Part shown: in pieces, positions 299-62,747 of the stretch
Numbering within the stretch: position 1 is the first letter of the stretch
Layout of the letters: each line of letters starts with the position of its first letter
Assembly (NCBI GenBank): GCA_000996245.1
Contig: LBYP01000002.1
Coordinates: 5,352-69,351, forward strand
Length of the DNA: 64,000 nt
Origin: Parcubacteria group bacterium GW2011_GWA2_40_23
Lineage (GTDB): Bacteria > Patescibacteriota > Patescibacteriia > UBA11705 > JABHMO01
Direction of reading: 5' to 3'
Program-made: the position numbers and the translations under genes
The notes under the pieces: generated by a model
The model's database searches: none
What the model was told of the DNA's origin: nothing
Seen by the model: the letters and a program-made list of their open reading frames with translations, nothing else

Positions 299-344
299 TA
301 ATCATAGTAATCACTTGGTAATCATGCTAATTATAGTCAATCAG
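299..344 (-). repeat. Phased array of five ATGATTA-like heptamers (plus strand TAATCAT), 9-11 bp period, abutting the T-tract of the unit A1 terminator
   Basis: taatcat 299, taatcac 308, taatcat 319, taattat 328, caatcag 338. The reverse-strand reading TGATTGACTATAATTAGCATGATTA matches 21/25 nt of the array at 18662-18696. Confidence 0.6.
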
Positions 345-347
345 AGT

Positions 348-385
348 AAAAAAAGGAGGGTCGACGCACTGTAGCATCGACCCTC
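348..385 (-). terminator. Intrinsic terminator of unit A1
   Basis: Reverse strand: GAGGGTCGA-N12-TCGACCCTC (9-bp perfect stem) followed by CTTTTTTT. Confidence 0.75.
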
Positions 386-979
386 GTGAACATGTCTTTA
401 CCACCGCGACCTTGACGGGCTTGCGATCAGAACAGCCCCGATCTTGGTCCGGCATGGATCCTCGGGGAACCGGCGTCCCATAGATACTGGGACGCGATGG
501 AGCTACGTGAACCAGCTCGGATACCGCTTGCACATGGCAAGTTCTCCTTCTGCTGTGGCCGCGAGCGTGGTGCTCGTTCTTCGGCCTCGTTCTTGCTCCA
601 GAACCGAGTTCGTGTGGCACGTCGCGAGTTGAGCTCTCGCAGCGTGCCGTCAGAAGCCGAAGATGAGCGTACCGGAGTGGAGCCGCATGAAGCCTCCGTC
701 TGCGGAATTCTCGCATCCAATTTCGAACTTCGAACCGTGTTGATCTCTTGTTGCTTGGTGAACAGCCTGTTGCACTCGGTGTTCCGCGGACTTGCTCGAT
801 GAACACAGTCTACAACAAATGAGTTCTGCGGACTTGTCCTACACGGGCGGGGGACGTGCTCTGAGCATGCGCACCTCCATGTTGTGGAACCTTGAGAACC
901 AACGTGGTGTTGATGGCCAGAAGCCGATATTCGAACGAACGCGGCTTCTTTCTCGCTAACACCACAAAAGCGAGACGAT
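348..979 (-). ncRNA. Unit A1: ~630-nt GC-rich transcript without a credible long ORF (candidate structured RNA, or decayed/scrambled coding cassette)
   Basis: Bounded by promoter 986-1014 and terminator 348-385. Many local helices, e.g. GCGTCCCA-N7-TGGGACGC at 473-495, and GGCACG/CGTGCC with nested GCGAG/CTCGC at 616-648. No frame shows the G/C third-position bias of the coding islands. The longest ORF (327-806) is Arg-rich and reads through the terminator. GGAGG (878-874) + 5 nt + ATG (868) opens only a 9-codon ORF, MLRARPPPV. Confidence 0.45.
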
Positions 980-985
980 AAAAAT

Positions 986-1014
986 ATCCTATACTATTTA
1001 TAAACTAATGTCAA
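986..1014 (-). promoter_or_regulatory. Sigma70-type promoter of unit A1
   Basis: Reverse strand TTGACA (1014-1009), 17-nt spacer ttagtttataaatagta, TAGGAT (991-986). Confidence 0.6.
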
Positions 1015-1028
1015 GTTTTTGGCAAAGG

Positions 1029-1056
1029 AAAAAGCGGTCGAGATGAGTCGAACCGC
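1029..1056 (-). terminator. Intrinsic terminator of unit A2
   Basis: Reverse strand GCGGTTCGA-N6-TCGACCGC (one bulged base) followed by TTTTTCC. Confidence 0.65.
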
Positions 1057-1267
1057 TTCTGGATTACTTGCTCGCCACGCCGTGGCACGCCGCTTCGAGG
1101 GAATCCAACCCCGGAAAAGCCTGTCTGTGGTAAACACTAAGGGGCCTTTCGACCTTAGTGCTCTGGACACTCTTCCATAGATCCTCCATGGTGTTTGTGC
1201 GTGCGCGAATCGTGACCGAACAGGATCTCTGCGTTGCTTCGCCGTTGATACGGCTTGGCAGTCCAGC
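1029..1267 (-). ncRNA. Unit A2: ~240-nt GC-rich transcript (candidate sRNA; a 41-codon small ORF cannot be excluded)
   Basis: Promoter 1274-1302 and terminator 1029-1056. Helices include CACTAAGG-N10-CCTTAGTG (1135-1160). GGAGG (1187-1183) + 4 nt + ATG (1178) opens a 7-codon ORF, MEECPEH. An SD-less 41-codon ORF (ATG 1189 to TAA 1064, MEDLWKSVQSTKVERPLSVYHRQAFPGLDSLEAACHGVASK) ends just before the terminator stem. Confidence 0.45.
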
Positions 1268-1273
1268 ATGTAT

Positions 1274-1302
1274 ATAATAGCACAATAATAAAATTATGTC
1301 AA
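1274..1302 (-). promoter_or_regulatory. Sigma70-type promoter of unit A2
   Basis: Reverse strand TTGACA (1302-1297), 17-nt spacer taattttattattgtgc, TATTAT (1279-1274). Confidence 0.7.
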
Positions 1303-1342: not shown

Positions 1343-1379
1343 AAAAAAAGAAGGGGTACCGCGTGAGCAAATACCCCTT
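1343..1379 (-). terminator. Intrinsic terminator of unit A3
   Basis: Reverse strand AAGGGGTA-N13-TACCCCTT followed by CTTTTTTTGC. Confidence 0.75.
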
Positions 1380-1447
1380 AGAACCGTGCCACCATTACAG
1401 TGGCGAGATCATGGTGTCCTCCAGTAATGGGGAAGACTAAAGTGACT
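1343..1447 (-). ncRNA. Unit A3: ~100-nt GC-rich transcript (candidate sRNA / leader-peptide RNA)
   Basis: Promoter 1450-1478 and terminator 1343-1379. Two mutually exclusive helices: CCATTAC..GTAATGG versus GCCAC-N7-GTGGC. GGAGG (1422-1418) + 5 nt + ATG (1412) opens a 5-codon ORF, MISPL (stop 1397-1395). Confidence 0.45.
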
Positions 1448-1449
1448 AC

Positions 1450-1478
1450 ATTATTACATAAAACAGCTTATATGTCAA
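1450..1478 (-). promoter_or_regulatory. Sigma70-type promoter of unit A3
   Basis: Reverse strand TTGACA (1478-1473), 17-nt spacer tataagctgttttatgt, AATAAT (1455-1450). Confidence 0.6.
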
Positions 1479-2295: not shown

Positions 2296-3807
2296 ATGGA
2301 AAAATATTACATAACAACACCTATTTATTACGCTAATAGCAAGCCACATATTGGTCATGCTTATACGACGATAGTGGCCGATATTTTAGCGCGATATTAT
2401 CGTTTAAAATTAGGACAAGAAAATGTTTGGTTTTTAACGGGGACAGATGAACATGGTTCAAAAATTGCGCAGGTTGCAGAAAAAGAAGGCAAAGATCCTC
2501 AAACTTTTGTTGATGATGTTTCAGCTCTTTTTCAGTTGTCTTGGAAAAATTTGAATATTAGTAATAACGATTATATTCGCACGACAGAAAAAAGACATGA
2601 AGACGTCGTCACTGAGATCCTCACGAAATTGAAATCAGCTAAAACTCCACTTGGCAATGACTTTATTTATTCTGGTGATTATGAGGGTTTATATTGTGTC
2701 GGTTGTGAATCATACAAAAAGCCTGAAGATTTGGTAGACGATAAATGTCCAGATCATAACAAAGAACCAGAATTGCTTAAAGAAAGTAATTGGTATATTC
2801 GTTTGTCAGATTATGCCGAGATACTCAAAAATAAAATTCAAAACGATGAAATAAAAGTTTTGCCAGCCGATCGTAAAACAGAAGTTTTGTCATTTATCGA
2901 ACAAGGTTTGGAGGATGTGGCCATTAGTCGTCAACAAGTTAAATGGGGCATACCGGTACCATTCGACAAAGATCAAACTATATACGTTTGGGTCGATGCT
3001 CTTCTAAACTATATCTCAGCACTTGGTTATCCAAATGACGAAAAGTTTAAAAAATTTTGGCCAGCAAACACTCAACTCTTGGCAAAAGATATTTTAAAGT
3101 TTCATGCCATCATTTGGCCAGCGATGCTCATTGCGGCCGGCATCGAGGCACCCAAAGAACTTTTTATCCATGGTTATTTCACTATTGATGGTAAGAAAAT
3201 GAGTAAAACTATTGGTAATGTTATTGATCCAAATGATTTAGTCTCTGAGTTCGGAGTTGACGCCGCACGCTATTTAATCGTTTCACAATTTCCATTTGGA
3301 CAAGACGGTGACGTCAAAGCTGATGAATTTAAAGTAAAATATAATTCTGATCTTGCTAATGGTATCGGTAATTTAGTTAGTCGTGTAATTACGATGGCTG
3401 AAAAGTATTGCGATAATAAAATTCCAGCATTGAAATATACTGGCACTTTTAATTTAACCGCACTTTGGAAAAGAGTGGAACAAAATTATGTAGATTATAA
3501 GATTTTTGAGAACCTTAGAGAAATTCAAGAATTAATTAGCTGGGCTGACAATCATATTGCCGAAACTACGCCTTGGGCCAAGGCTAAAGAAGGGAAGGCA
3601 GCAGAAGTAAACCAAATCCTTTATAATTTAATTGAAGTCCTGAAACAACTTGCGGGGTTATTACTTCCGATACTTCCACAAACCGGAGCAGAGATTCTTA
3701 AACGTATAAATTTTGCTTCTACTGATATAGAATCAATTAAAACACTGAATAATCTCGACTCAAAAAAAACATTAGATAAAGGTGAGCCTTTATTCCTTAG
3801 AAAGTAG
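2296..3807 (+). CDS. metG: Methionyl-tRNA synthetase
   Basis: HIGH-type motif PHIGHAYT and KMSKS-type motif KMSKT. Length and N-terminus are typical of MetRS. Confidence 0.95.
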   Translation: MEKYYITTPIYYANSKPHIGHAYTTIVADILARYYRLKLGQENVWFLTGTDEHGSKIAQVAEKEGKDPQTFVDDVSALFQLSWKNLNISNNDYIRTTEKRHEDVVTEILTKLKSAKTPLGNDFIYSGDYEGLYCVGCESYKKPEDLVDDKCPDHNKEPELLKESNWYIRLSDYAEILKNKIQNDEIKVLPADRKTEVLSFIEQGLEDVAISRQQVKWGIPVPFDKDQTIYVWVDALLNYISALGYPNDEKFKKFWPANTQLLAKDILKFHAIIWPAMLIAAGIEAPKELFIHGYFTIDGKKMSKTIGNVIDPNDLVSEFGVDAARYLIVSQFPFGQDGDVKADEFKVKYNSDLANGIGNLVSRVITMAEKYCDNKIPALKYTGTFNLTALWKRVEQNYVDYKIFENLREIQELISWADNHIAETTPWAKAKEGKAAEVNQILYNLIEVLKQLAGLLLPILPQTGAEILKRINFASTDIESIKTLNNLDSKKTLDKGEPLFLRK

Positions 3808-3863
3808 TAATTTGCTTTTTTGTTTTCTTGCTTTTTTGATTATCGTTAAATAATTTTCTAAAT

Positions 3864-4706
3864 ATGATAGACACTCATGCCCATGTTAATTTTAGCACCT
3901 TTAAAGATGATGCTGATGCAGTAATTCAATCAGCTTTAGATAAAAAAATTGCTATTATTAATGTTGGGTCGCAAATCAGCACTAGTCGTCGTGCCGTCGA
4001 GTTGGCCGCTAAGTATCCTCGTGTGTTTGCAGCTATTGGTTTACATCCGATTCAATTACAGGATGAAGAAGTAATTGAGGAGGGAATCACTTTCACTACA
4101 CGGAAAGAAGAGTTTAACTACTCAACATACAAAGAGTTGGCTAAACAGAAACATGTCATCGCTATTGGTGAGACTGGTTTGGATTATTACCATATTCAAG
4201 AAAGGCCTGAATTTAAAGAGATTGTTGAAGATCAGAAGAAAGTTTTTCATCAACATATAGATTTGGCAAATGAAATGAAATTGCCCATGATCATTCATAC
4301 CCGAAGTGGTAAAAATAATAGTGATGCGGCGTGCATCGATATTCTCTCGGAGTTAAGAAAAAATAAACCTAAATATGGTGGAGTTATGCATTGCTATGCT
4401 GGTCCGCCTGAATTGATTAAGGATTTTGTGGCCCTGGATATGTATATTAGTTTTAACGGTATTTTAACTTTTGATAAAACGGGACTCATCGAAAAAATCT
4501 TGTTCTCAACACCCGAAGATCGAATTCTAACTGAAACCGATTGTCCTTATCTAACTCCTGCGCCATATAGAGGCAAACGTAATGAACCGGCCTATGTGGA
4601 TTTTGTAGTTTCTAAAATCGCTGAACTAAAAAATCGTGAATTTGCTGAAATTGATCTTTTAACGACCAGAAACGCAGAACGACTTTTTCATATCGCTTTA
4701 CAATAG
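3864..4706 (+). CDS. tatD: TatD-family metal-dependent hydrolase/DNase
   Basis: MIDTHAHVNF N-terminal HxH metal motif, GETGLDYY, ~280 aa. Confidence 0.85.
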   Translation: MIDTHAHVNFSTFKDDADAVIQSALDKKIAIINVGSQISTSRRAVELAAKYPRVFAAIGLHPIQLQDEEVIEEGITFTTRKEEFNYSTYKELAKQKHVIAIGETGLDYYHIQERPEFKEIVEDQKKVFHQHIDLANEMKLPMIIHTRSGKNNSDAACIDILSELRKNKPKYGGVMHCYAGPPELIKDFVALDMYISFNGILTFDKTGLIEKILFSTPEDRILTETDCPYLTPAPYRGKRNEPAYVDFVVSKIAELKNREFAEIDLLTTRNAERLFHIALQ

Positions 4707-4770
4707 GATTTTATGATCAAGCTTCGTATTGTGACTTATAAACAAGAATGCTTGATTTTTTTTTATTTTC

Positions 4771-5097
4771 ATGATAGATTGTAGGTGCTTTTCTATACCT
4801 ATGCAAAATTCTAAGAATGAGAAAGTTTGGTGGCAACCGGCCATCGAAATCTTTGTTCAAGTCTCTGGATGGATTGTATTCCCGCTACTCATCGGTATTT
4901 ATTTAGGCCGATGGTTACAGGAAAAATGGGGACATGAACCGTGGATATATATAGGTTGTGTTGCGGCTGCTTTCATTATTACAAATGTGGGTTTAATACT
5001 GATTGTTTTAAAGGCGGCCAAGAAAATGCAAAAAGTCATCGACGAATCCGAAAAACAAGTTCAGAATCACAAAGAGACTGAGCAAGTAAAAAAATAA
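4771..5097 (+). CDS. AtpZ/AtpI-like small membrane protein preceding atpB (alternative start ATG 4801)
   Basis: Two hydrophobic helices; positioned immediately upstream of atpB as in many atp operons. Confidence 0.5.
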   Translation: MIDCRCFSIPMQNSKNEKVWWQPAIEIFVQVSGWIVFPLLIGIYLGRWLQEKWGHEPWIYIGCVAAAFIITNVGLILIVLKAAKKMQKVIDESEKQVQNHKETEQVKK

Positions 5098-5100
5098 TAT

Positions 5101-6006
5101 ATGGCTCAAAGTGGTCACGCGACAACTGAAGTGCAAGAAATAGAAACTGCTCAAACAGAAGAGGCAGTTACGCTTGGTCACAATTCTACGGATGCAAAAA
5201 CAGAAGTTTCGCACGAAGCTACTTTAGCGGCAGAACCAATTGCTCATTTTGGTGCTTTCCCAATTACAAATTCTTTATTAAATACCTGGATAGTTGTCGC
5301 TATCCTTTTTGTTTTTGCCATTGTTTTACGATCTAAATTGAAAATAATTCCAAAGGGTTTGCAGAATCTATTTGAAATTGTAGTTGATGGTGCCTTGAAT
5401 CTGTGCGACTCAGTAACTAATGACCGCAAAAAAACCTTAAAAGTTTTTCCAATCGTTTTTAGTTTCTTTATATTCATTTTAATTGCTAATTGGATGGGTT
5501 TAGTCCCGGGAATTGGTTCAATCGGATTTATTGAAACTGAAGGAGCTCATAGTATTTTTGTCCCATATTTTCGTGGTGGTACGGCCGATTTAAATACAAC
5601 ATTAGCTTTAGCTTTGATTGCAGTTATTGGTTCGAATATTTTCGGTATTATAGCAGTGGGCGGCTGGAAGTATTTTAATAAATTTGTAAATCTAAAAATT
5701 TTGGCTCGAATCCCATTTACGATAAAAAAGGATCCAAGTGTCATCATTGTTAACCCTATTAAGTTTTTTGTGGGTATTATAGAAATTATCGGTGAAGTGG
5801 CAAAAATTGCTTCGCTCTCTTTTCGGCTTTTTGGAAATGTTTTTGCTGGCGAGGTTCTACTTTCATCATTAGCTGTTATTTTGGCCTTTGGATTACCAAT
5901 ACCTTTTATGTTTTTGGAAGTTATAGTAGGTGTTATTCAGGCATTAATATTTGGCATGTTGACTTTGGTTTATTTCAGCATTGCCATGACTGAAGAAGAA
6001 CATTAA
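5101..6006 (+). CDS. atpB: F0F1 ATP synthase subunit a
   Basis: Polytopic membrane protein with the conserved LSFRLFGNVFAGE arginine motif. Confidence 0.9.
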   Translation: MAQSGHATTEVQEIETAQTEEAVTLGHNSTDAKTEVSHEATLAAEPIAHFGAFPITNSLLNTWIVVAILFVFAIVLRSKLKIIPKGLQNLFEIVVDGALNLCDSVTNDRKKTLKVFPIVFSFFIFILIANWMGLVPGIGSIGFIETEGAHSIFVPYFRGGTADLNTTLALALIAVIGSNIFGIIAVGGWKYFNKFVNLKILARIPFTIKKDPSVIIVNPIKFFVGIIEIIGEVAKIASLSFRLFGNVFAGEVLLSSLAVILAFGLPIPFMFLEVIVGVIQALIFGMLTLVYFSIAMTEEEH

Positions 6007-11568: not shown

Positions 11569-12024
11569 ATGGAAAAAATGAATTTTAAAATTGCGACTCC
11601 CGAACGTGTCGTCTTCAAAGAAGACATTGATTCAGTTACTTTGCCAACAAGAGCTGGTGAAATTACGGTTTTACCAAATCACGTCCCACTGATTTCAGTT
11701 TTGCAACCAGGGGAAATAAGAATTCAAAATGAGGGCAAGGAAACAGTTCTGGCCATCTCGGGTGGTTTTGTTGAAGTTTTATCAACCAAGGTTGTTGTCT
11801 TGGCTGACACTGCTGAACGTTCAGAAGAAATTGATGTGGCTCGAGCCGAAGCCGCGATTCGCAAAGCGCAAGAATTGCGTGAACAAAGAGCGGGGGATAG
11901 TCGCGAGTTTGCAGCTCTTTCAGCACAAATTGAAAAAGAATTGGCACGTGTGAAAGTCGGTCGTAAAATGGCGCATCGGGTTCAAATGCAAGGCGCGCAA
12001 AGAAGTCAGCTAGAAAAAGAATAG
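11569..12024 (+). CDS. atpC: F0F1 ATP synthase subunit epsilon (extended C-terminus)
   Basis: Operon position; N-terminal beta-sandwich-like sequence, then a helical tail. Confidence 0.85.
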   Translation: MEKMNFKIATPERVVFKEDIDSVTLPTRAGEITVLPNHVPLISVLQPGEIRIQNEGKETVLAISGGFVEVLSTKVVVLADTAERSEEIDVARAEAAIRKAQELREQRAGDSREFAALSAQIEKELARVKVGRKMAHRVQMQGAQRSQLEKE

Positions 12025-12040
12025 TATAAAGTTATAATAG

Positions 12041-12076
12041 AAGGTCAGAGTTTAATGCTCATGACCTTTTATATTT
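12041..12076 (+). terminator. atp operon terminator
   Basis: GGTCA-N14-TGACC followed by TTTTATATTT. Confidence 0.6.
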
Positions 12077-12118
12077 ATCATGATTTTGCTATAATTCCAT
12101 TGAATAAAAATAAAAAAT

Positions 12119-12616
12119 ATGGTGATTCTAGATTACATTTTGCTTGGTATCATTATCCTCTTGGGAATCTTAGGATTAAGAAGGGGACTAATTCAATCAG
12201 TTGGATCAATCATCGGCATTATTGTGGGAACGCTTGTGGCGAGTCGTTTTTATCCGCTGGTTGCAGATTGGTTTGGCGGATCTAATTTAACAACTTTGCT
12301 AACATTTATTGTAATTTTTAGCATAACTGTTAAACTGGTCAGTATCTTGTTTTGGCTCCTTGGCAAGATCTTTAAGATAATAACCATTCTACCTATAATA
12401 TCGCATTTTGACAGGTTTTTAGGCCTAATTTTAGGGCTTGTAGAAGGGCTGCTAGTCCTCGCAGTGATTCTAAGCTTTTTACTGAAATATCCATTTAACT
12501 ATTGGATAGTAACTCAAATGGGTGCTTCAGTTGTCGCAAAAGTTTTGTTGAAAATCGGGTTTGTGTTTATTCCACTTTTCCCAGATGCTTTGAAGAAAAT
12601 TAAATCATTCATGTAA
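12119..12616 (+). CDS. cvpA: CvpA-family membrane protein
   Basis: N-terminus ILDYILLGIIILLGILGLRRGLIQSVGSIIGIIVG is typical of CvpA; 4 TM helices. Confidence 0.7.
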   Translation: MVILDYILLGIIILLGILGLRRGLIQSVGSIIGIIVGTLVASRFYPLVADWFGGSNLTTLLTFIVIFSITVKLVSILFWLLGKIFKIITILPIISHFDRFLGLILGLVEGLLVLAVILSFLLKYPFNYWIVTQMGASVVAKVLLKIGFVFIPLFPDALKKIKSFM

Positions 12617-12617
12617 T

Positions 12618-13490
12618 ATGTCAAATGTAAAACAGTATAAAAGAAGGGAAAAGGGAAAAGGGATATGGGGTATGGGAGTTAGATCTTCCCTTATACCTTA
12701 CCCCATAATGCTTACCCCAAATAAATTGTTTTTTTGTTTTCTTGCTTTTTTGATTATGCTTACAGGTTGTACTAAAGTAGGTGATTATTCTTTCGTCAAT
12801 TATGGACTTAACACCAAGACCAATGAAATAGTAAAATCCGCAGATGGTCAATCCGTTTCTTGGGTATCACAAGATGTAAGTGGCGAAAAAGTAATGAACA
12901 GAATTTTTTCCGCAACAAACACCGGTAAAAACAAAACAGAACTTTTGAGTATGGAATTAGAGAAGGAACGTTCTTTACGTATTTTAGGTTTTTATCCAGA
13001 GAATAGCGTTTTCGTTTATGCTATCGAATATCAAAATCCAAACTTTGGAGTTGCTGTACAACGAGAAACTTTTTATAAATTTTTTAATGAAGATAATTCA
13101 CACAGTATTGGTAAAGATTATTTACGATTTTTCAAAACAGATCGTGGTGTCATGGGCTTAAGAGTCGGTGATGTCTTAGCTTACTATCAACTATCAATGA
13201 ACAATGCCTATGCGGTTGATTCTAAAAGTAATTACATCCAAGATAGTAAGGTAAAAGCATTATTTACAGATGCACAATTAACTCCTGATCTTAAAAAAAT
13301 TGTCTATACTTTTGAATATGAACCAGCAACTCAAGGCTATAATCAGAATAAGCTAATGGTCAGCGATTTTTATGGGGAGAATCGCAAGGAACTTGTCGCC
13401 TCAGACAAAAGTATTGATATTCTTGAAATGATTGGCAATGATAAAGTTAAGGTCAAAGTCGGGGATGAAGAAAAAGAGTTTTCCTTTTAA
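12618..13490 (+). CDS. Putative lipoprotein (likely true start ATG 12708)
   Basis: Lipobox LTGC after the hydrophobic stretch FFCFLAFLIM. From the in-frame ATG at 12708 the signal peptide is MLTPNKLFFCFLAFLIMLTGC. The upstream 30 codons overlap a G-rich hairpin motif. Confidence 0.6.
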   Translation: MSNVKQYKRREKGKGIWGMGVRSSLIPYPIMLTPNKLFFCFLAFLIMLTGCTKVGDYSFVNYGLNTKTNEIVKSADGQSVSWVSQDVSGEKVMNRIFSATNTGKNKTELLSMELEKERSLRILGFYPENSVFVYAIEYQNPNFGVAVQRETFYKFFNEDNSHSIGKDYLRFFKTDRGVMGLRVGDVLAYYQLSMNNAYAVDSKSNYIQDSKVKALFTDAQLTPDLKKIVYTFEYEPATQGYNQNKLMVSDFYGENRKELVASDKSIDILEMIGNDKVKVKVGDEEKEFSF

Positions 13491-13502
13491 GTAAATTATG
13501 AA

Positions 13503-13533
13503 GAGGCGAGCTAGGCTCGTCTCTTTTTGTTTT
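13503..13533 (+). terminator. Terminator of the lipoprotein gene (sequence re-used right of island B)
   Basis: GAGGCGAGC-tag-GCTCGTCTC followed by TTTTTGTTTT. Confidence 0.7.
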
Positions 13534-13637: not shown

Positions 13638-13666
13638 TTGACAAACATAAGAAAGTATGTTATTGT
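13638..13666 (+). promoter_or_regulatory. Sigma70-type promoter of island B
   Basis: TTGACA (13638-13643), 17-nt spacer aacataagaaagtatgt, TATTGT (13661-13666). Confidence 0.6.
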
Positions 13667-13705
13667 TATGGCAATTGAACCTGTGCTACAACGATGGAGG
13701 AATCC

Positions 13706-13990
13706 ATGGATCTGATCGGATTGGACATGAAGGCTCGTCAGGCTCGGGAGAAGTTCACGGTCGTGACCAAGCTGGGTGATGCGGTCTGGACGCCGGCGGA
13801 GATCAACCGACTGGTGCACCAGTACAGAACCATCATCAGCACGCTTCCCAGGATGCCCTCCGTCGCGATTCTCGCGGGAGAGTACTCCAAGGACCAGCTC
13901 GTCGCGTTCCTCGGGACGGACAACTTCACCGTCGAGCTGATGGTCGGTCGCCAGAACCCCAAGCTGCCGTTCAGCGCTCCGATGCTCTGA
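13706..13990 (+). CDS. Island B1: 94-aa GC-rich protein of unknown function, paralog of B2
   Basis: GGAGGA ends 4 nt before ATG 13706. G/C-ending codons dominate. About 45% identity to B2 over ~67 aa (KFTVVT..G..VW..E..RL....PR..SVAI.AGE.SK...V..LGTD.F.VEL.V). Confidence 0.7.
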   Translation: MDLIGLDMKARQAREKFTVVTKLGDAVWTPAEINRLVHQYRTIISTLPRMPSVAILAGEYSKDQLVAFLGTDNFTVELMVGRQNPKLPFSAPML

Positions 13991-14020
13991 GCGCGGCAAG
14001 TTCGAAAGAGAGGAACGGAC

Positions 14021-14248
14021 ATGCTGGTTCTGTTGACTCCTGCCAAGTTCACCGTCGTGACCTTGTTCGGTTTTGGGGTGTGGCATAAGGACGAGGTTCA
14101 ACGTCTGGCGAACAGGCTGAGAGCCTGCGTCTACACGTATCCAAGGAGGCTTTCGGTCGCGATCATCGCGGGAGAGCACTCCAAGGCTTCGATCGTGGAC
14201 GTCCTCGGTACGGACGACTTCGGCGTCGAGCTGAAGGTCAAGTGCTAG
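14021..14248 (+). CDS. Island B2: 75-aa GC-rich protein, paralog of B1
   Basis: AGAGAGGAA SD-like motif 5-6 nt before ATG 14021; same conserved blocks as B1; followed directly by terminators. Confidence 0.7.
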   Translation: MLVLLTPAKFTVVTLFGFGVWHKDEVQRLANRLRACVYTYPRRLSVAIIAGEHSKASIVDVLGTDDFGVELKVKC

Positions 14249-14282
14249 AAACCAGTCACTCAAGGTTTCAAGAGGCGAGCAG

Positions 14283-14351
14283 CTTCGTAGTTGCTCGCCT
14301 TTTAAATTTTAGGAAATGAGACAACTCGTCTCTTTTTGTTTATTATGCTAA
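14283..14351 (+). terminator. Two tandem terminators closing island B
   Basis: AGGCGAGC-N12-GCTCGCCT + TTTTAAATTTT (14283-14320), then GAGAC-N5-GTCTC + TTTTTGTTT (14328-14351). Their outer halves, AAGAGGCGAGC and CTCGTCTCTTTTTGTTT, duplicate the host terminator at 13501-13532. Confidence 0.7.
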
Positions 14352-14364: not shown

Positions 14365-17337
14365 ATGAGCTTATTAGAATCATCAAACAAAGAGCAGCTT
14401 TCAGCTATTATGCATGAGGCTGGGCCTCAGCTGATCGTTGCCGGAGCGGGGACGGGCAAGACGCGAGTAATTACAGCCCGTATAGCTTATTTAATTACAG
14501 AAAAAAACATAAATGTCGACGAAATTCTGGCTTTGACTTTTACTGACAAAGCAGCCGAAGAAATGGAAGAACGTGTAGATAAAATGTTGCCTTATGGCTA
14601 TGTCGACTTGTGGATTTCAACTTTTCACTCCTTTTGTGACAAACTATTAAAACGCCACGCTCTCGATATTGGACTCTCTAACAATTATAAACTTATAAAC
14701 GAAACTGAGGCTTGGTTACTGATTAAAAAGAATTTAGCGCGTTTTGATTTGGATTATTACCGTCCGCTTGGTAATCCAACCAAATTTATTCATGCTTTGC
14801 TAAAACATTTTTCGCGTTGTAAAGATGAGGGCATTTCGGCCGAAGAATATTTGGAATTTGCTGATGGTTTAAAATTGGACTTGGATGTAACTGATTATGT
14901 AAAAAAATTAGATTTGCCAGAAGACTTTGCGGAACTGAAGAAAGAAGAAAAACAAGCGTTGCTCAAACAGGAAATTATTCGAATTAATGAAATCGCTAAG
15001 GCATATCACACATATCAACAAATATTAATCGAAAATGATTGCTTGGATTTTGGCGATTTGCACAATTACGCCATTAAACTTTTTAAAGATCGTCCCTTGA
15101 TTTTAGATAAATATCGACGTCAATTTAAATATATACTTGTCGATGAATTTCAGGACACAAATTTTGTTCAATATGAACTCATCAAGCTTTTAGCAGCTCC
15201 CAAAAATAATTTGACAGTGGTGGGGGATGATGACCAGTCAATTTATAAATTCCGAGGAGCTTCTATTAGTAATATCATGCAATTTAAAGAAGATTACCCA
15301 AACGCGCAGGAAGTTGTCTTAACGGAAAACTATCGATCGGCGCAGGAAATTTTAGATTTGTCATATAATTTTATTAAGCAAAATGATCCTAATCGGTTGG
15401 AAGCGAAGTTGAATATCAATAAAAAATTAAAATCGAATAAAACTGAGCAGGGAGTTATCGATCACAAACATTTTGAAACTATCGATGCTGAAGCGCAGTT
15501 TGTTATAAGTCAGATTCGAGAAATACAAAAAGTAACTCAGTGCGAGTGGAAACAATTTGCCATATTGGTACGTGCCAATGAAAGCGCTAATATTTTTATT
15601 AGTTATTTAGATTCCGCAAATATTCCATATCAGTTCTTAGCATTACGTGGATTGTATACGAAGCCAGTCATTGTTGATTTGCTCAACTACCTAAAGTTGT
15701 TAGATGATTATCATGAGGGAGCTTCGGTTTATCGATTGTTAAATTTCCCATGTTTCAAATTAAAAACTGATCAAATCATCAAAATTGTTCATTATGCAAA
15801 GCAAAAAAGTTTTTCATTGTACGACACGTTGAAGAAGATTGTTATAATTCCTGGTATTGAAATGGAAACAATAACTCAGGTTGGGAAAATATATGCTCAG
15901 GTTGAAGCTGATACTGCTTTGGCACAAAAGAAACGTCCGACCGAAGTCTTGCTAAATTTTTTATACACTTCCGGTTATTTAGAACACGTAAAAAATTTGG
16001 ACGAAAAAATTGCTAAAGAAAATTTAGATTATATCCAACAGTTTTTTCAAAAAGTTAAAGAGATAGAAACCACTTACGAAGATGCGCGCATTAAAGATAT
16101 AGTCGAGGTTTTTGATTTAGAATTGCAATCTGGCGAAGCTGGGCGATTGGCTTTTGATGTTGAAACAGGTCCAGACATGGTAAAGGTCATGACAGTGCAT
16201 GGATCAAAAGGTTTGGAGTTTGACTATGTTTTCTTGCCAAATCTTGTCGACCGTAAATTCCCAACAGACGAACGCAAAGAGGCTATCGAGATTCCAGCAG
16301 CCTTGATTGAAGAAAAACTGCCCGAAGGTAATTTCCATTTAGAAGAAGAACGCCGACTTTTTTATGTGGCGATGACTCGAGCGCGACGTGGTTTATTTTT
16401 TACATCGGCAGAGGATTATGGCGGAGTACGCAAAAAAAGGTTATCGAGATTTTTAATAGAAATGGGTTATAAAAAAGATTATGACATCCAATCGACTGAA
16501 ACTATTTTAATCAAGCCAAGTAAATCATCAGCAGTTGATAAATTTGTTTATGAATTACCAAAAAGATTTAGCTTTTCGCAAATTGCAACTTACGAAAAAT
16601 GTCCTTTACAATACAAATACGGAAATATTTTAAAAATCCCAGCTTTTGGCAGTCATTATTTTACTTTTGGTACAATTATCCACTCAACTTTGCAGAAATT
16701 TCTAGAAGAATCGTATCAAGTTAATAATAATGTTCAAGAAGATTTATTTAGCAATATAAAAAAGACGATTAAAAAGGGAACTTTGCCCTTGGATCGATTG
16801 TATCAAGTTTATGATGATGTTTGGTTTGATGATTGGTTCCAAGATCCTAAGCAGAAAGAAGAATATTATAAAAAAGGAAAAGCTTTGCTGAAAAGTTTTC
16901 ATGCTGATTTTAATTCAGAGTTACCAGAAGTAAGAAATCTCGAAATATCATTTAAATTGCCAGTCGGCCCATATTTCTTTTCTGGTAGAATTGATCGAGT
17001 CGATAATTTAGAGTCTGGTTTAGTGCAGATCATTGATTATAAAACCGGGCAAGCCAAGGATGATAAATTAACAACAGATGACAAACGTCAACTTTTATTT
17101 TATCAGATTGCGGCCGAGGAAGCCTTAAAGTTGAAAGTTGAAAAGATGACATACCATTATTTAGAAGAAAATAAGAAAATATCTTTTATGGGTAAAGAAA
17201 AAGACAAGGAAGAATTAAAGAAAAGATTTATTGAAGATATTGAATTGATCAAGGCACAGAAATTCGAAGCCACGCCAAGTCCTTATGTTTGTGGTAGTTG
17301 CGATTATCGAAATATTTGTGAGCATAAAAAATTGTAA
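14365..17337 (+). CDS. UvrD/PcrA-type superfamily-1 helicase fused to a C-terminal PD-(D/E)XK, Cas4/AddB-like 4-Cys nuclease
   Basis: Walker A GAGTGKT, motif II VDEFQDTN, C-terminal Cys cluster KCPLQ ... CGSCDYRNIC (CX2CX5C). Start at ATG 14365 (track start 14359 is TTG). Confidence 0.85.
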   Translation: MSLLESSNKEQLSAIMHEAGPQLIVAGAGTGKTRVITARIAYLITEKNINVDEILALTFTDKAAEEMEERVDKMLPYGYVDLWISTFHSFCDKLLKRHALDIGLSNNYKLINETEAWLLIKKNLARFDLDYYRPLGNPTKFIHALLKHFSRCKDEGISAEEYLEFADGLKLDLDVTDYVKKLDLPEDFAELKKEEKQALLKQEIIRINEIAKAYHTYQQILIENDCLDFGDLHNYAIKLFKDRPLILDKYRRQFKYILVDEFQDTNFVQYELIKLLAAPKNNLTVVGDDDQSIYKFRGASISNIMQFKEDYPNAQEVVLTENYRSAQEILDLSYNFIKQNDPNRLEAKLNINKKLKSNKTEQGVIDHKHFETIDAEAQFVISQIREIQKVTQCEWKQFAILVRANESANIFISYLDSANIPYQFLALRGLYTKPVIVDLLNYLKLLDDYHEGASVYRLLNFPCFKLKTDQIIKIVHYAKQKSFSLYDTLKKIVIIPGIEMETITQVGKIYAQVEADTALAQKKRPTEVLLNFLYTSGYLEHVKNLDEKIAKENLDYIQQFFQKVKEIETTYEDARIKDIVEVFDLELQSGEAGRLAFDVETGPDMVKVMTVHGSKGLEFDYVFLPNLVDRKFPTDERKEAIEIPAALIEEKLPEGNFHLEEERRLFYVAMTRARRGLFFTSAEDYGGVRKKRLSRFLIEMGYKKDYDIQSTETILIKPSKSSAVDKFVYELPKRFSFSQIATYEKCPLQYKYGNILKIPAFGSHYFTFGTIIHSTLQKFLEESYQVNNNVQEDLFSNIKKTIKKGTLPLDRLYQVYDDVWFDDWFQDPKQKEEYYKKGKALLKSFHADFNSELPEVRNLEISFKLPVGPYFFSGRIDRVDNLESGLVQIIDYKTGQAKDDKLTTDDKRQLLFYQIAAEEALKLKVEKMTYHYLEENKKISFMGKEKDKEELKKRFIEDIELIKAQKFEATPSPYVCGSCDYRNICEHKKL

Positions 17338-46735: not shown

Positions 46736-46757
46736 CGTTCAACAACGTTCGTAGCCG

Positions 46758-46855: not shown

Positions 46856-47473
46856 ATGAATGCGAAACATCTTCCTCCGCCCACTCCCACGACGCTCTCC
46901 GAAGCGTTTTGGCCCCTGTTCATGACGAACAAAGTGATGGTGCGTTTTGTCGGTGCGTATATCTGCTTCGGCGTGGCAGATGACAGCAACCGACTACTCG
47001 TAGTGTATGCACACGACACTGCCAGCCGATTGCATCTTCCTACACAGGAAGCAATTGCTCGAGCGTTCCCTCTGCGGAATGCCAAACAACAAGAATACAC
47101 CGGACCACATGATCTGCCAGTGTCGTACAGTGACATTCAACGAGTTCGCAACGTGATGCGTTATGAGTTTCTTCAGGAAAACCGGCGCGTCTTACTGCTT
47201 GTTTCGACTCCTGAGGAGTCGGTAGTTGAAAACCAGGAACAACTCATGTTCATCCAATGGAGTAGACCGAACCCACTTCAAATTGCTCGCATCGTCGAAA
47301 CTATTGGTGCGGATCGTGTCCACGTCGTACGAAAAAATGCGCTGGAAACGCGCCTCCTGGTGGAGTTGAAACCCAATGAACGATTGAAGTTCTCTGTGAC
47401 CGGTTGCCACTTCAGCAGCCCCTTTGCAACTGCGGCTCTGTTGCCGGTGCAGTGCGACACCTGCACTGCTTGA
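46856..47473 (+). CDS. Island H: 205-aa protein of unknown function (intermediate GC)
   Basis: AAGGAG lies 6 nt before the ATG. Bounded by its own promoter and terminator. No recognisable motif. C-terminal Cys pair CDTC. Confidence 0.65.
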   Translation: MNAKHLPPPTPTTLSEAFWPLFMTNKVMVRFVGAYICFGVADDSNRLLVVYAHDTASRLHLPTQEAIARAFPLRNAKQQEYTGPHDLPVSYSDIQRVRNVMRYEFLQENRRVLLLVSTPEESVVENQEQLMFIQWSRPNPLQIARIVETIGADRVHVVRKNALETRLLVELKPNERLKFSVTGCHFSSPFATAALLPVQCDTCTA

Positions 47474-47477
47474 AAAT

Positions 47478-47518
47478 AAGCCAGCCTTGATCCTCGAATC
47501 TTGGCTGGCTTTCTTTTT
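47478..47518. terminator. Terminator after island H, shared with the convergent wecG-NUDIX gene
   Basis: AAGCCAGCC-N16-GGCTGGCTT followed by TCTTTTT; A-rich on the other side. Confidence 0.7.
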
Positions 47519-47529
47519 ACAAAATAAAT

Positions 47530-48735
47530 CTAAATTTCATCAATAAATTTTTTGGTAAATTCTTGTCGAACCGGATGTAATAGTTTTAATAGTTCATCTT
47601 TTTTGACCCACTTGATGGCAGCGACTTCCCTATTTGGTCGGAATTGATTTGAGTCGATAGCCCCGCTATATTCTACTAAAAATGCAATTTGCTTTTGTCC
47701 TTTGTACCCATGAAGTAATTGATAATGTTTTGGTGAGATATAGGCATGTTCTGCCTTAATTCTTTTAACTACTTTCATCTTATCTAATTCGAATCCGAGC
47801 TCTTCATTAATTTCACGCAGGATTGCAATCTCAATATTCTCGTTTTTATCAACGCCGCCTTGTGGAAATTGCCAGTGATTGGGAAGATGAGCATTTTCTT
47901 GAATTAAATATAGACCGTCTTTGTTTTTTATAACGCCGAGAACATTGGCACGATATTCTGTTTTAATTCTTTTAGCCCATTTATGACATTCTAAAAGAAA
48001 ATCTGCGGTGGCATGTTTAATGCGCATCAACCTTTTTGGTTCTTGATAAAGTCTAAAGAGCCATTCCATTCCCAGTTCTTGCATTAACTTTGGCGCGCGC
48101 TTTATCTTGCCTGATAAAAAATCAAAAGATCCCCCGACACCCAATGCTATTCTGACTGATGATCCATACCCCTTATCCCCTATCCCTTTTCCCAAATTGT
48201 TTTCAATCCACTCCTCTTGTTCTGGCGCACCCAAACAGACAAACAATACTTGAGTTTGATGCTTTTTGATTTTGTCCAAAAGAACTTTATCAGCGATTGG
48301 AGTTTTAGCGGATAAAGCACATCCAAGTTTAACTTGAGGATATGAATTATCGAAAAACTTTTTTAGGTCCTCAAGCGTTGTTAGCGAATCGTTTCGTAGA
48401 AGTACAAAAACACGAGCCGAGTTGTTTTGGCCTAATAGTTCGCGCGTGAAGTCAGCGCCTGTGACTCGGTTTTTTAAATCTGTTCCAAGTATTTTGGCAC
48501 CGAGTTTGAGCCCAAAGCCATCTGGCAAATTTAAGTCTGCCGAGTTCAATGTGTCTTTGTATTCTTCCGAGCTTGCAGCTTTTAAGCAGATTTCTGGGTT
48601 GGGCGTATAAACGCTATGGGGAGCATCCGAGGCCATGAACTCCCTGGTTTTTTCAAGAAAATATTCCAAAGGCTGGTCGTCTATTTTAACGCCAAGAATT
48701 ATCGCTTTGTTTTGTAGGTCTTTGGGGACGTTCAT
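47530..48735 (-). CDS. Fusion protein: WecG/TagA/CpsF-family glycosyltransferase + C-terminal NUDIX hydrolase
   Basis: GAPEQEEWI ... GVGGSFDFLSGKIKRAP ... GMEWLFRL (WecG/TagA motifs), then NUDIX box GGVDKNENIEIAILREINEELG. Start at MNVPKDL (48735), because the track extension overlaps the clpB promoter. Confidence 0.8.
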   Translation of the reverse strand: MNVPKDLQNKAIILGVKIDDQPLEYFLEKTREFMASDAPHSVYTPNPEICLKAASSEEYKDTLNSADLNLPDGFGLKLGAKILGTDLKNRVTGADFTRELLGQNNSARVFVLLRNDSLTTLEDLKKFFDNSYPQVKLGCALSAKTPIADKVLLDKIKKHQTQVLFVCLGAPEQEEWIENNLGKGIGDKGYGSSVRIALGVGGSFDFLSGKIKRAPKLMQELGMEWLFRLYQEPKRLMRIKHATADFLLECHKWAKRIKTEYRANVLGVIKNKDGLYLIQENAHLPNHWQFPQGGVDKNENIEIAILREINEELGFELDKMKVVKRIKAEHAYISPKHYQLLHGYKGQKQIAFLVEYSGAIDSNQFRPNREVAAIKWVKKDELLKLLHPVRQEFTKKFIDEI

Positions 48736-61218: not shown

Positions 61219-61219
61219 A

Positions 61220-62215
61220 TTAATTTAAAAATAATTTTGTATCAAGGGCAAAAATGCGATCGGAAAAATCTGCCGGAGAGCCTTGATTATCGAAGATAGC
61301 TTTATCAGCGACGTTAACCTTAGTAGATAGATCATCCAAATGATTTAGCGCAACTGCTTCGCGTGTTTGTGGTAAAACAGGGCTACCAAACTCTAAACGG
61401 CCATGATGACTGGCAATTAAATGTAGCACTTTTGTTTTTAATAAATCAGGAAAATCTTTTATACTCTCGATAGCTTTAGACACAGCAATTGTGCCTAACA
61501 TTAAATGACCAATGAGCGCCCCATCAACAGTACGAAAAATTGTATGATTTACATCCAATTCATCGAGTTTGCCAATGTCATGTAATAAAACTCCAGTCTT
61601 TAAAAGATCTTTATCTATTCTTGTAAAACTGGCACATAAACATTCTGCTAATGCAAGCATCTCGGATACATGTTCTACAAAACCACCAACGTAAGCATGA
61701 TGTATACGTTCTGCTGCCGGAGCTTTCTTGAACTTTTCGATAAATTTTTCATCTTTAAAAAAAGAATTTACGAGTTTCTTTAAATCATCATTCTCGATAC
61801 TATCGACTTGTTTTAAAATTGTTTTGAAGAGCGCTTCTAAATCCTTCTCTGATCCGGGTAGAAAATCGGCTGTTTCTTGATTTTGAGCTTTTTGTAAAAA
61901 TGAAATTATAAGTTGATTTTTTTCTTTAAATTCATTGACCTTGCCTCCAAGACTAATGATGTCACCAATCTCAAACTCATCACAATTGTTCAAATTATCT
62001 TCCCAAATTTTAGCTGTTATTTCACCGGTTCGATCAGCTAAAATAAGGTCAATAAAATCTTTATTTTGGCTGGTTTTCCCTTTTTTAATGTCTCGTACTA
62101 CTGCTAAAAAATTGGCGACTTGGTCTCCGGCTTGTAAATCCTTGATGAATTTATCTTTCATATTTGATTGTTTTTTATGATTTGTGACCTCTTCTATAAA
62201 TGAAAGTTGAGTCAT
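61220..62215 (-). CDS. YhaM-like OB-fold + HD-domain 3'-5' exoribonuclease (alternative start 62161)
   Basis: N-terminal OB fold (FLAVVRDIKKGKTSQNKDFIDLILADRTGEITAKIW) and HD domain (HHAYVGGFVEH ... LLHDIGK). The track's 80-codon N-terminal extension runs into island I and is rejected. Confidence 0.75.
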   Translation of the reverse strand: MTQLSFIEEVTNHKKQSNMKDKFIKDLQAGDQVANFLAVVRDIKKGKTSQNKDFIDLILADRTGEITAKIWEDNLNNCDEFEIGDIISLGGKVNEFKEKNQLIISFLQKAQNQETADFLPGSEKDLEALFKTILKQVDSIENDDLKKLVNSFFKDEKFIEKFKKAPAAERIHHAYVGGFVEHVSEMLALAECLCASFTRIDKDLLKTGVLLHDIGKLDELDVNHTIFRTVDGALIGHLMLGTIAVSKAIESIKDFPDLLKTKVLHLIASHHGRLEFGSPVLPQTREAVALNHLDDLSTKVNVADKAIFDNQGSPADFSDRIFALDTKLFLN

Positions 62216-62276
62216 AATGCTGTGATTTATACTAAAATAGCGTAAGAGTATAAAATTATTATAGCATTTTTTGAGA

Positions 62277-62312
62277 AATATAAAAGGCGCACTGATCTTG
62301 AGACCAGGCGCC
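62277..62312 (-). terminator. Terminator of island I
   Basis: Reverse strand GGCGC..CTG.TCT..AGA.CAG..GCGCC extended imperfect stem followed by CTTTTATATTT. Confidence 0.6.
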
Positions 62313-62318
62313 AACGTT

Positions 62319-62660
62319 CTACGCAGCTGCAACGATTTTCTTGATTTTTCGACGCAGTTCAATCGCATCGAAAGGCTTGGTGACCACTTCGTCGGGTTGC
62401 TCGGCACAAGAGAAGTGTTCTGGCGGGGCGCTTGAAACCATGATGATGCGAGCATCAGGGCAAAGTCGTCGTGCGTAGACGATGAACTCGGCTCCCGTCA
62501 TTCCAGGCATGTCGTGGTCTGTGACAATGACCCGGGCTGAGCGACCGCTAAGGCATTTTAAGGCCTCGAATGGTGAATGATGCGTTCGGTGTGGCAAAGT
62601 ACCAGCAACAGCCTTGAATAGAGCTAGATTCTCTGGCAGATCATCAACGAAAAGCACCAT
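62319..62660 (-). CDS. Island I: stand-alone CheY-like response-regulator receiver domain (113 aa)
   Basis: VLFVDD acidic pair, VIVTDHDMPGMTG phospho-acceptor Asp context, IIMVSS, TKPF lysine. AGGGAG lies 7 nt before the ATG. GC-rich codons. Confidence 0.8.
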   Translation of the reverse strand: MVLFVDDLPENLALFKAVAGTLPHRTHHSPFEALKCLSGRSARVIVTDHDMPGMTGAEFIVYARRLCPDARIIMVSSAPPEHFSCAEQPDEVVTKPFDAIELRRKIKKIVAAA

Positions 62661-62693
62661 AACATGACTCCCTATGTTGATAAGAGCTTCAAT

Positions 62694-62722
62694 ACTGTAT
62701 ACTAAAAAAAACTTCCTGTCAA
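62694..62722 (-). promoter_or_regulatory. Sigma70-type promoter of island I
   Basis: Reverse strand TTGACA (62722-62717), 17-nt spacer ggaagttttttttagta, TACAGT (62699-62694). Confidence 0.6.
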
Positions 62723-62747
62723 GGATCGCTTTTGTGAATAAGTCGAT

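Follow-up and report, generated by a model that had tools for sequence, protein, structure and literature searches.

A 64,000-nucleotide stretch (the window) of contig LBYP01000002.1, from the Parcubacteria group bacterium GW2011_GWA2_40_23 of the candidate phyla radiation (CPR), contains eleven GC-rich units, here termed U1 to U11, that lie at seven intergenic sites of an otherwise AT-rich genome. The guanine-plus-cytosine (GC) content of these units is 0.49-0.66 and their GC content at third codon positions (GC3) reaches 0.95, in a genome with a GC of 0.35. The host genes present include rsmI, metG, tatD, the atp operon, a pcrA-Cas4 fusion, proS, mreBCD/mrdA, clpB, priA, def, fmt and several aminoacyl-tRNA synthetase genes. 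The PcrA encoded in the window has a 100% identical counterpart in Parcubacteria group bacterium GW2011_GWC2_39_14, and the closest AtpD matches are mostly to Patescibacteria metagenome-assembled genomes (MAGs), or to MAGs with uninformative or apparently mis-assigned titles. The units and the repeats beside them, with predicted promoters, Shine-Dalgarno (SD) sites, terminators and small open reading frames (mini-ORFs), are the following:

347-1014, minus strand: U1, with its -35 box at 1014, an RNA of ~630 nt (GC 0.56), an SD with a 9-codon mini-ORF (MLRARPPPV) and a terminator hairpin at 356-385.
1022-1302, minus strand: U2, with its -35 box at 1302 (TTGACA-17-TATTAT), a GC-rich RNA of ~245 nt, an SD with a 7-codon mini-ORF, and a terminator.
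1343-1478, minus strand: U3, with its -35 box at 1478, an RNA of ~100 nt, an SD with a 5-codon mini-ORF, and a terminator.
13638-14296, plus strand: U4, with a promoter, a 32-nt leader, paralogues of 94 aa (13706-13990) and 75 aa (14021-14248), and a terminator; GC3 0.84 and 0.79.
17339-18476, minus strand: U5, with a promoter (TTGACA-17-TAGAAT with TG), a 63-nt leader, an SD, a 326-aa protein (17397-18377) and a terminator; GC3 0.91.
18702-19437, minus strand: U6, with a TTGACT promoter, a 37-nt leader, an SD, a 207-aa protein (18741-19364) and a strong terminator; GC3 0.94.
19737-20160, plus strand: U7, with a promoter, an SD, a 105-aa Cys-rich protein (19798-20115) and a terminator; GC3 0.68.
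29640-29945, minus strand: U8, with a promoter, an SD, a 63-aa hydrophobic protein (29687-29878) and a weak terminator; GC3 0.62.
45075-46795, plus strand: U9, with a promoter, a conserved 110-nt leader, an SD, a 504-aa protein (45221-46735) and a terminator; GC 0.68, GC3 0.95.
46794-47518, plus strand: U10, with a promoter, the SD AGGAG, a 205-aa orphan protein (46856-47473) and a terminator; GC3 0.54.
62280-62722, minus strand: U11, with a promoter, the SD-like GGGAG, a 113-aa receiver (62319-62660) and a terminator; GC3 0.51.
13516-13532, plus strand: the left of two copies of a perfect 17-nt direct repeat, CTCGTCTCTTTTTGTTT, that brackets U4.
14325-14341, plus strand: right copy of the same 17-nt repeat CTCGTCTCTTTTTGTTT bracketing U4.
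299-349, no strand assigned: tandem array of the 9-nt unit TAATCATNG, 5.3 copies, just past the U1 terminator.
18662-18697, no strand assigned: tandem array of the 9-nt unit TAATCATGA, 3.9 copies, just past the U6 terminator.

In 300-nt windows, a background GC of 0.30-0.40 rises to 0.49-0.72 inside blocks at 301-1450 and at 13.8-14.3, 17.4-18.4, 18.7-19.4, 19.8-20.1, 29.6-29.9, 45.2-47.5 and 62.4-62.7 kb, and an 80-nt segmentation recovers identical blocks, bearing out the jumps in composition reported in the original prediction, an earlier reading of the sequence alone. That reading had also described TTGACA or TTGACT promoters with 16-17 nt spacers and, after each unit, a GC hairpin with a T-tract, and our scans agree. 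A predicted promoter of this type with a -10-like hexamer was found in all eleven units (TTGACT once), with -35 boxes at 1014, 1302, 1478, 18476, 19437 (TTGACT), 29945 and 62722 on the minus strand and at 13638, 19737, 45075 and 46794 on the plus strand, and a consensus-type hairpin and T-tract follows the stop codon in every case. Several of the top-scoring promoter matches in the first 20 kb are unit promoters, and the top three terminator-like sites there are unit terminators. The promoters have a GC of only 0.17-0.39, compared with 0.49-0.66 in the unit bodies, while the 5' untranslated regions (UTRs) lie at 0.38-0.58 and the RNA-only units at 0.49-0.56. No strong GC skew was seen at the units in the composition windows.

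Other parts of the earlier description were too uniform. Leaders of 25-110 nt do end in an SD-like site before an ATG, but this is not always the GGAGG that had been claimed (AGGAG in U10, GGGAG in U11 and GAGAGGA before the second cistron of U4). Likewise, an almost exclusive use of G/C-ending codons holds for three genes (GC3 0.91-0.95) and not for the remainder, which range from 0.84 and 0.79 in U4 to 0.68, 0.62, 0.54 and 0.51 in the others. Nor are all units monocistronic, as U4 is bicistronic and U1-U3 carry mini-ORFs of 5-9 codons only. In sequence, the units have nothing in common beyond the generic promoter and SD consensus, and among the flanking ORFs examined no transposase or integrase was seen beside them, as had been noted before. 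The -35 box of U7 sits within the 3' end of the host gene dciA, and the U10 promoter overlaps the T-tract of the U9 terminator.

Translation initiation signals also separate the units from their surroundings. Predicted pairing with the anti-SD sequence is ~0 kcal/mol at 39 host gene starts, none of which carries an SD, as opposed to -8 to -16 kcal/mol at unit coding starts (the score for U6 refers to an ATG further upstream, and GGAGG precedes its real start at 19364). Moreover, a -10-like hexamer ends 6-12 nt before the ATG in 11 of 40 host genes, five of which have a perfect TATAAT at 7 or 9 nt, suggesting that about a quarter of host genes are leaderless; both observations fit the earlier claim that host genes are SD-less and often start shortly after a -10 box. 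The 3' end of a 16S rRNA gene was found neither in the window nor in any fetched locus, and the window yielded no tRNA or tmRNA genes. In Bacteroidota, according to work reportedly by Jha et al. in 2021 and McNutt et al. in 2023, the anti-SD is said to be sequestered on the ribosome while rpsU (bS21) keeps an SD. As there, the bulk of host genes here is SD-less and a few genes have a strong SD, and by analogy the unit SDs could be read by a distinct ribosome state; the present case differs in concerning another phylum and an SD-led set that is GC-rich, accessory and fast-evolving.

The junctions between units and host DNA are authentic and recur in related genomes. A Logan contig from the single run SRR3309152 is 100% identical to window positions 44030-47562, spanning both junctions of the largest island, and contigs from a second run, SRR29904083, hold U9/U10 and U5 with host flanks (U5 beside pcrA). 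For comparison we used a close relative with PcrA 91% identical, represented by loci L082 and L083 on an ENA contig of 372 kb and by L084 on a JGI contig, the distant relatives L086 (PcrA 67%) and L088/L089 (PcrA 66%), and the locus L090, with MetG 92% identical. The close relative is collinear with the window throughout L082, L083 and L084 and has GC-rich blocks at matching places, blocks also occur at matching sites in L086 and L088/L089, and the genes within shared blocks are orthologous. The same joins are found in this genome and its relatives at at least five sites, across several runs and assemblers (ENA megahit-style, JGI), with island regulatory regions aligning base for base with their counterparts.

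The units are thus inherited in place, being present in all close relatives examined and not showing the patchy distribution by which recent islands are recognised. In L083, the U4 orthologues (85% and 91% identical) have kept their GC3 and that of U7 is 80-82% identical (GC3 0.76); the U10 orthologue in L082 is 85% identical (GC3 0.55), and U5 has orthologues in L083, L088 and L086 at 45%, 42% and 31% identity. At greater distance the content varies, with U4 missing from the equivalent spacer in L086 and the set of units at a hot spot next to pcrA differing in L086 and L088. U4 is bracketed by a duplication of the upstream host terminator (window 13502-13532 and 14269-14341) that includes AGAGGCGAGC as well as the 17-nt repeat CTCGTCTCTTTTTGTTT, and the left arm of the second copy is reused within U4's own terminator. 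This arrangement, which is conserved in L083 (9140-9170 and 9906-9977), resembles a scar left when something inserted at a terminator long ago. It is the only such scar; the other ten units have no flanking repeats.

Comparison of the window with L082/L083 revealed that unit composition has been maintained over considerable divergence. Host genes have a protein identity of 79-99%, synonymous divergence (dS) of 0.6-1.9, non-synonymous divergence (dN) of 0.006-0.13 and a GC3 of 0.28, whereas island genes show 45-91% identity, dS 0.16-0.62, dN 0.05-0.53 and dN/dS of ~0.3-0.85. Island GC3 in the window and the relative is nonetheless paired gene by gene, at 0.95/0.95, 0.91/0.94, 0.92/0.95, 0.84/0.84, 0.79/0.82, 0.68/0.76 and 0.54/0.55, and is still 0.86 in L088 and 0.78 in L086. 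This gene-specific persistence contradicts the implicit premise of the original prediction that GC-richness signals recent import. The same prediction had named the finding of these genes with host-like composition in relatives as evidence against itself; the relatives' orthologues are GC-rich.

Differences between island orthologues at fourfold degenerate sites are mostly exchanges between C and G (17.7% of sites, compared with 2.6% in host genes). Because such changes are blind to any GC-directed force, they can be used as a clock, and their frequency per G/C site (0.235 in islands, 0.196 in host genes, p=0.2) indicates that the islands and the genome diverged together, with mutation at a normal rate; hypermutation of the islands was rejected on the same clock. 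Fourfold sites of host genes are ~74% resampled (~49% identical) between the window and L082/L083, from which a resampling model estimates that each site was randomised ~0.66 times per lineage. Under this model, neutral decay with no restoring force would have lowered a GC3 of 0.95 to ~0.63. Since GC3 is unchanged, composition has been maintained in place, with an implied scaled bias (S) of ~1-4 depending on the unit. With host synonymous sites near saturation, the unchanged GC3 largely refutes recent horizontal transfer.

The force has sharp borders. The 324-nt dciA, which lies between U6 and U7, keeps a GC3 of 0.29 in both genomes, and an AT-rich tatD is likewise enclosed by GC-rich units in L006, another CPR-type locus. 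Together with the moderate GC of the UTRs and RNA units, the low GC3 of dciA argues that the force acts on the unit, through its transcript or its codons. Codon optimisation for high expression was considered and is unlikely, given that core genes such as atpD have a GC3 of 0.28 and that the most GC-rich units evolve fastest.

The encoded proteins are mostly orphans. Searches with Pfam and PHROGs over all island ORFs gave matches solely on the receiver (REC) domain of U11, where both matching PHROG families are of unknown function. The U11 product matches PF00072 at 37.5 bits (cut-off 30.2) and has all the expected residues (D6-D7, D48 in VTDHDMPG, S76 and K95-P), which identifies it, by sequence, as a canonical single-domain CheY-like receiver. 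U5 encodes a secreted, Cys-rich orphan of 326 aa in which an orthologue alignment displays five invariant cysteines and, immediately behind the signal peptide, an invariant AGGGPP; the AGGGPP motif may be a processing or anchoring signal. The 504-aa orphan protein of U9, of a helix-hairpin-helix (HhH)/zinc type, comprises an N-terminal helix-hairpin-helix-like region, Cys/His clusters, a variable linker and a conserved C-terminal part, the first of these being suggested by a weak RuvA match (E=0.17) in a PDB sequence search. The same searches with the 504-, 326- and 205-aa proteins returned nothing beyond this hint, and an AlphaFold2 model of the 504-aa protein built from two sequences was too poor to be used (predicted local distance difference test score, pLDDT, of 49). 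U4 encodes two small paralogues; as read from the sequence, U7 encodes a small Cys-rich protein and U8 a small two-helix membrane-type protein.

The 207-aa protein of U6 has a signal peptide followed, according to structure prediction, by a 12-stranded antiparallel beta-barrel of the outer-membrane type. Its structural matches are of the KdgM/NanC type at 6-8% sequence identity, and no Pfam family, KdgM included, was hit at E<=0.01. It thus differs from KdgM/NanC porins both in lacking sequence similarity and in being encoded by a CPR bacterium; to our knowledge, CPR cells are generally regarded as having no outer membrane. The distribution of the families is equally restricted. Among 5.8 billion clusters the 504-aa protein has one homologue, the L082 orthologue, and among 1.84 billion representatives it has eight; the 207-aa family has 13 members, whose inspected contigs are short or CPR-type. 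The island families thus number only 2, 13 and 8 database members, all of those with an inspected contig are in a CPR context, and in neither resource was a donor homologue found outside such contexts.

U1-U3 are probably structured RNAs with an SD and a mini-ORF. Compared with shuffled sequences, their fold z-scores are -4.1, -2.2 and -3.8, respectively, and nhmmer searches recovered homologues only in L090. There, U1 retains its promoter, SD-ATG, 3' domain and terminator with a divergent middle, U2 retains the hairpin GCACTAAGG/CCTTAGTG, the terminator and the length, though not the sequence, of its mini-ORF, and U3 retains its promoter and SD-ATG. No Rfam family matched the window or six related loci at gathering thresholds, and a permissive Rfam scan of 300-1500 gave no credible match for U1-U3. 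The U1 mini-ORF (868-897, minus strand) starts M-x-x-A-R-P-P-P in both the window and L090. As polyproline stretches are a classic ribosome-stalling motif, it may encode a regulatory (stalling) leader peptide. According to what is reportedly work of Agaisse and Lereclus from 1996, ribosomes bound at a so-called STAB-SD protect Bacillus mRNA from 5' decay; U1-U3 would resemble this arrangement in having a strong SD near the 5' end, few codons and an otherwise non-coding transcript.

Structure extends to the coding units. Predicted folding of island mRNAs is about twice as strong as that of host mRNAs (-30 to -47 and -18 to -25 kcal/mol per 120 nt, respectively), and all seven island mRNAs have negative z-scores relative to their own synonymous shuffles (Stouffer -3.2, compared with -1.2 for host genes). 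The 110-nt U9 leader (45111-45220) is ~97% identical in L082 and could form a long hairpin, with a fold z-score of only -1.7; it may be regulatory.

Phage morons, reportedly described by Hendrix and Juhala, resemble these units in several respects. Morons are single-gene units with their own promoter and terminator that lie between neighbouring genes and deviate in GC (Cumby, Davidson & Maxwell 2012, PMC3594210). The present units likewise have a predicted promoter and terminator each (consensus matches in 11 of 11) and differ from their flanks in composition (GC 0.49-0.66 and GC3 0.51-0.95, compared with 0.35 and 0.28). Unlike morons, they reside not in a prophage but in the chromosome of a cell, where housekeeping genes flank them (aminoacyl-tRNA synthetases, ATP synthase, pcrA, dciA), are syntenic across diverged relatives with their composition maintained, and include three that encode RNAs. 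They are therefore not strict members of the phage moron class.

We lean, by a small measure, towards the view that the units are vertically inherited, moron-like, SD-led GC-rich accessory genes and small RNAs whose composition is held by a unit-specific force. In this model each unit would be expressed autonomously from a host-type sigma-70 promoter, through a leader with a canonical SD and a GC-rich body, to an intrinsic terminator, and the units together would form a second expression class beside the AT-rich leaderless or SD-less housekeeping genes. A directional force acting unit by unit would hold GC at a gene-specific level. The likeliest candidate for this force would be selection on the transcript for a very stable, highly structured RNA; such a structured, GC-rich mRNA would need an SD where translation by default starts leaderless or independently of an SD, and meanwhile the encoded orphan proteins would evolve quickly. 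The units may ultimately descend from a GC-rich, SD-using and possibly diderm donor, and we infer a role for them at the cell surface or in host interaction.

Several observations weigh against this account. The promoters, transcription starts and terminators are predictions from consensus matches, the divergence estimates draw on two to four genomes per gene with small counts of fourfold sites for short genes, and island mRNAs fold only modestly better than their synonymous shuffles. Across units, a higher GC3 goes with a higher dN (0.25-0.53 in genes with GC3 >0.9, compared with 0.05-0.12 in those with GC3 0.54-0.84), a trend likewise expected from mutation or conversion. Polarising synonymous changes with an outgroup gave 11 changes from G/C to A/T and 8 in the opposite direction, a weak signal confounded by saturation, with an artefactual excess of changes towards G/C in host genes. 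Codon usage of the genes with GC3 >0.9 is that of an ordinary high-GC genome, which fits a foreign origin and by itself points to no specific selection; this codon table and the rise of GC3 with dN keep biased conversion and foreign origin under consideration. Finally, island regulatory regions are 91-95% conserved, but host intergenic spacers are about equally so, and an unusual conservation of the former was dropped as an argument. Host spacers are often 85-96% identical between the window and L082/L083, and the short spacers of this compact genome thus appear to be under strong constraint.

Among the alternatives, recombination hot spots with GC-biased gene conversion, or a local GC-biased mutation process, would account for the correlation of GC3 with the rate of protein evolution, and the implied S of ~1-4 falls in the range discussed for biased conversion. 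A precedent may be seen in Borrelia vls, a GC-rich, fast-evolving and conversion-driven surface-antigen locus in a very AT-rich genome, which the islands resemble in being fast-evolving GC-rich loci on an AT-rich background. They differ from vls in lacking an array of silent cassettes and a strong GC skew, and in comprising many unrelated genes at dispersed sites instead of one locus. Moreover, neither silent cassettes nor internal repeat donors were found, exchange between C and G is near the host level with no sign of imported far-diverged alleles or hypermutation, and each gene retains its own GC3 set-point across genomes. A regional process also sits poorly with the sharp borders, as dciA remains at 0.29 between two units despite containing the U7 -35 box, and with UTRs and RNA-only units at 0.38-0.58 GC instead of ~0.9. 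Regional mutation bias or biased gene conversion thus fit less well than selection on the transcript, and we regard them as unlikely.

Recent horizontal transfer from GC-rich, SD-using bacteria, with the units not yet drifted to host composition, would explain a composition and codon usage typical of high-GC genomes, SDs that host genes lack, the predicted diderm-type barrel of U6, the scar-like terminator duplication around U4 and the variable content of the hot spot in distant relatives. As in the acquired islets for which an amelioration model is reportedly due to Lawrence and Ochman in 1997, the units have atypical GC and codon usage, accessory functions and a lineage-restricted distribution. 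Unlike such islets, they show no decay towards host composition, no detectable donor homologues and no mobility genes. The near-saturated synonymous divergence of same-site orthologues with unchanged GC3, where neutral decay predicts ~0.63, the lack of any homologue outside CPR contexts in the searches of 5.8 billion clusters and 1.84 billion representatives, the AT-rich, host-type promoters and the absence of a mobility or tRNA gene nearby make a recent arrival improbable.

To a mobile family of promoter-gene-terminator cassettes that insert into intergenic spacers or terminators we assign a slim chance. It would be consistent with the uniform architecture of the units, the perfect 17-nt repeat duplicating the upstream terminator around U4, the 9-nt arrays beside two units and the variable pcrA hot spot. 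However, no recombinase, transposase or integrase lies in or beside any unit, ten of the eleven lack flanking repeats, no sequence beyond the promoter and SD consensus is shared, and positions are stable across relatives. Integron cassettes, which are promoterless, arrayed beside an intI integrase and expressed from a common promoter, differ further, since each unit here has its own promoter, the seven sites are dispersed and no integrase was found among the scanned ORFs. At the 3' end, where an integron cassette has its attC recombination site, the units carry ordinary hairpin/T-tract terminators. The cassette-type mobile or recruited gene family put forward in the original prediction therefore survives in part: the units are autonomous and recruited, but syntenic orthologues and the missing recombinase show that they are not recently mobile.

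A very unlikely but distinctive alternative is that the units serve expression in, or are delivered to, another translation environment, namely a GC-rich, SD-dependent and probably diderm host bacterium of this epibiotic CPR cell. Transcription would start at the CPR bacterium's own AT-rich promoters and yield RNAs of unusual stability, with codon usage, ribosome-binding sites, Sec signals and the 12-stranded barrel tuned to the partner's machinery instead of that of the CPR cell. Such cross-cell expression would explain both a composition held against the genome's mutation bias and protein evolution at arms-race speed.

The two remaining options of the original prediction, deliberately engineered expression cassettes and an assembly or binning chimera of AT-rich and GC-rich organisms, can practically be dismissed: textbook-like parts (consensus -35, 17-nt spacer, GGAGG, hairpin terminator) might suggest engineering, but the source is a groundwater metagenome-assembled CPR genome, the islands recur in independent environmental samples and assemblies with coding parts diverged by 10-55% at the protein level in kept synteny, and the genes are orphans without markers or reporters, and, similarly, the abrupt composition switches and the shortness of many database contigs with island genes might suggest a chimera, but the identical single-run contig across both junctions of the 45-47.5 kb island, the second run and other assemblers repeating the joins, and the alignable regulatory regions of relatives speak against it.

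The coupling of a high GC3 to an SD is not confined to this genome. ORFs with a GC3 more than 0.25 above the local median occur in 11 of the 44 AT-rich, SD-less (CPR-type) loci that were fetched, at a frequency of 3.5 per 100 kb as opposed to 0.7 per 100 kb in SD-using AT-rich genomes. In SD-less Patescibacteria loci the SD of these high-GC3 ORFs has a mean of -7.5, compared with ~-1 kcal/mol, and L004 and L006 display a matching promoter, SD and terminator anatomy on direct reading. Most high-GC3 proteins in other CPR-type loci are without a Pfam match. Downstream of atpC in L004, a GC-rich, SD-led Pro_CA_2-like gene (GC3 0.67) adjoins an AT-rich paralogue (GC3 0.32; 12012-12371 and 12517-13065), the two being 27.5% identical, and L088 holds only the AT-rich copy at that position. 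This pair hints that native genes might enter the GC-rich class. Our literature searches found no published description of such a pattern of GC-rich, SD-led units in CPR; the feature is real and apparently undescribed.

Textbooks treat atypical GC as a mark of recent transfer that should fade with time, whereas here a GC3 of up to 0.95 is kept in a genome with a GC3 of 0.28, despite a divergence that largely replaced neutral sites. Its retention in each unit separately, and the sharpness of the borders, imply that synonymous sites are under a strong force specific to each gene, which is coupled to a change of initiation mode (SD-led as against leaderless or SD-less). If confirmed genome-wide, CPR bacteria would have two expression classes. 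The units would then provide a handle on the genes with which CPR bacteria interact with their hosts, among them that for a porin-like barrel in a cell supposed to be monoderm, and a clean natural test case for telling selection from biased conversion at synonymous sites. They also carry a warning, as composition-based detection of horizontal gene transfer and the 'decontamination' of MAGs would wrongly drop such regions.

Further observations concern the surroundings of the units. U8 is flanked on one side by a gene for a class II tRNA synthetase (Asp/Lys/Asn-type) and on the other by one for a seryl-tRNA synthetase, and U11 lies between a queuosine-biosynthesis gene and an HD/OB-domain gene. 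The arrays of the 9-nt unit TAATCATGN are found directly past the terminators of U1 and U6, both on the minus strand, and the array orthologous to that of U1 in L090 (2976-3096) has 12.4 copies; they could serve as a protein-binding array. Upstream of rsmI in L086, ~2.4 kb of GC-rich DNA without called genes (2540-4950) contains minus-strand promoter-to-terminator units, one of ~1.2 kb, with no Rfam family matched, and these may be large unknown CPR RNAs.

Among the host genes, L083 has between atpG and atpD a 306-aa ORF (4951-5871) of host-like composition, without a Pfam match and absent from the window. The window's PcrA/UvrD-type helicase (14365-17337, 990 aa) is fused to a C-terminal PD-(D/E)XK/Cas4-like nuclease domain, a fusion kept across many Patescibacteria. 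Lastly, a host protein of 2228 aa (35315-42001), whose orthologue has weak Big_5 and CarboxypepD_reg matches, is the product of the host gene that evolves fastest among those compared (79% identity) and is probably a giant surface protein.

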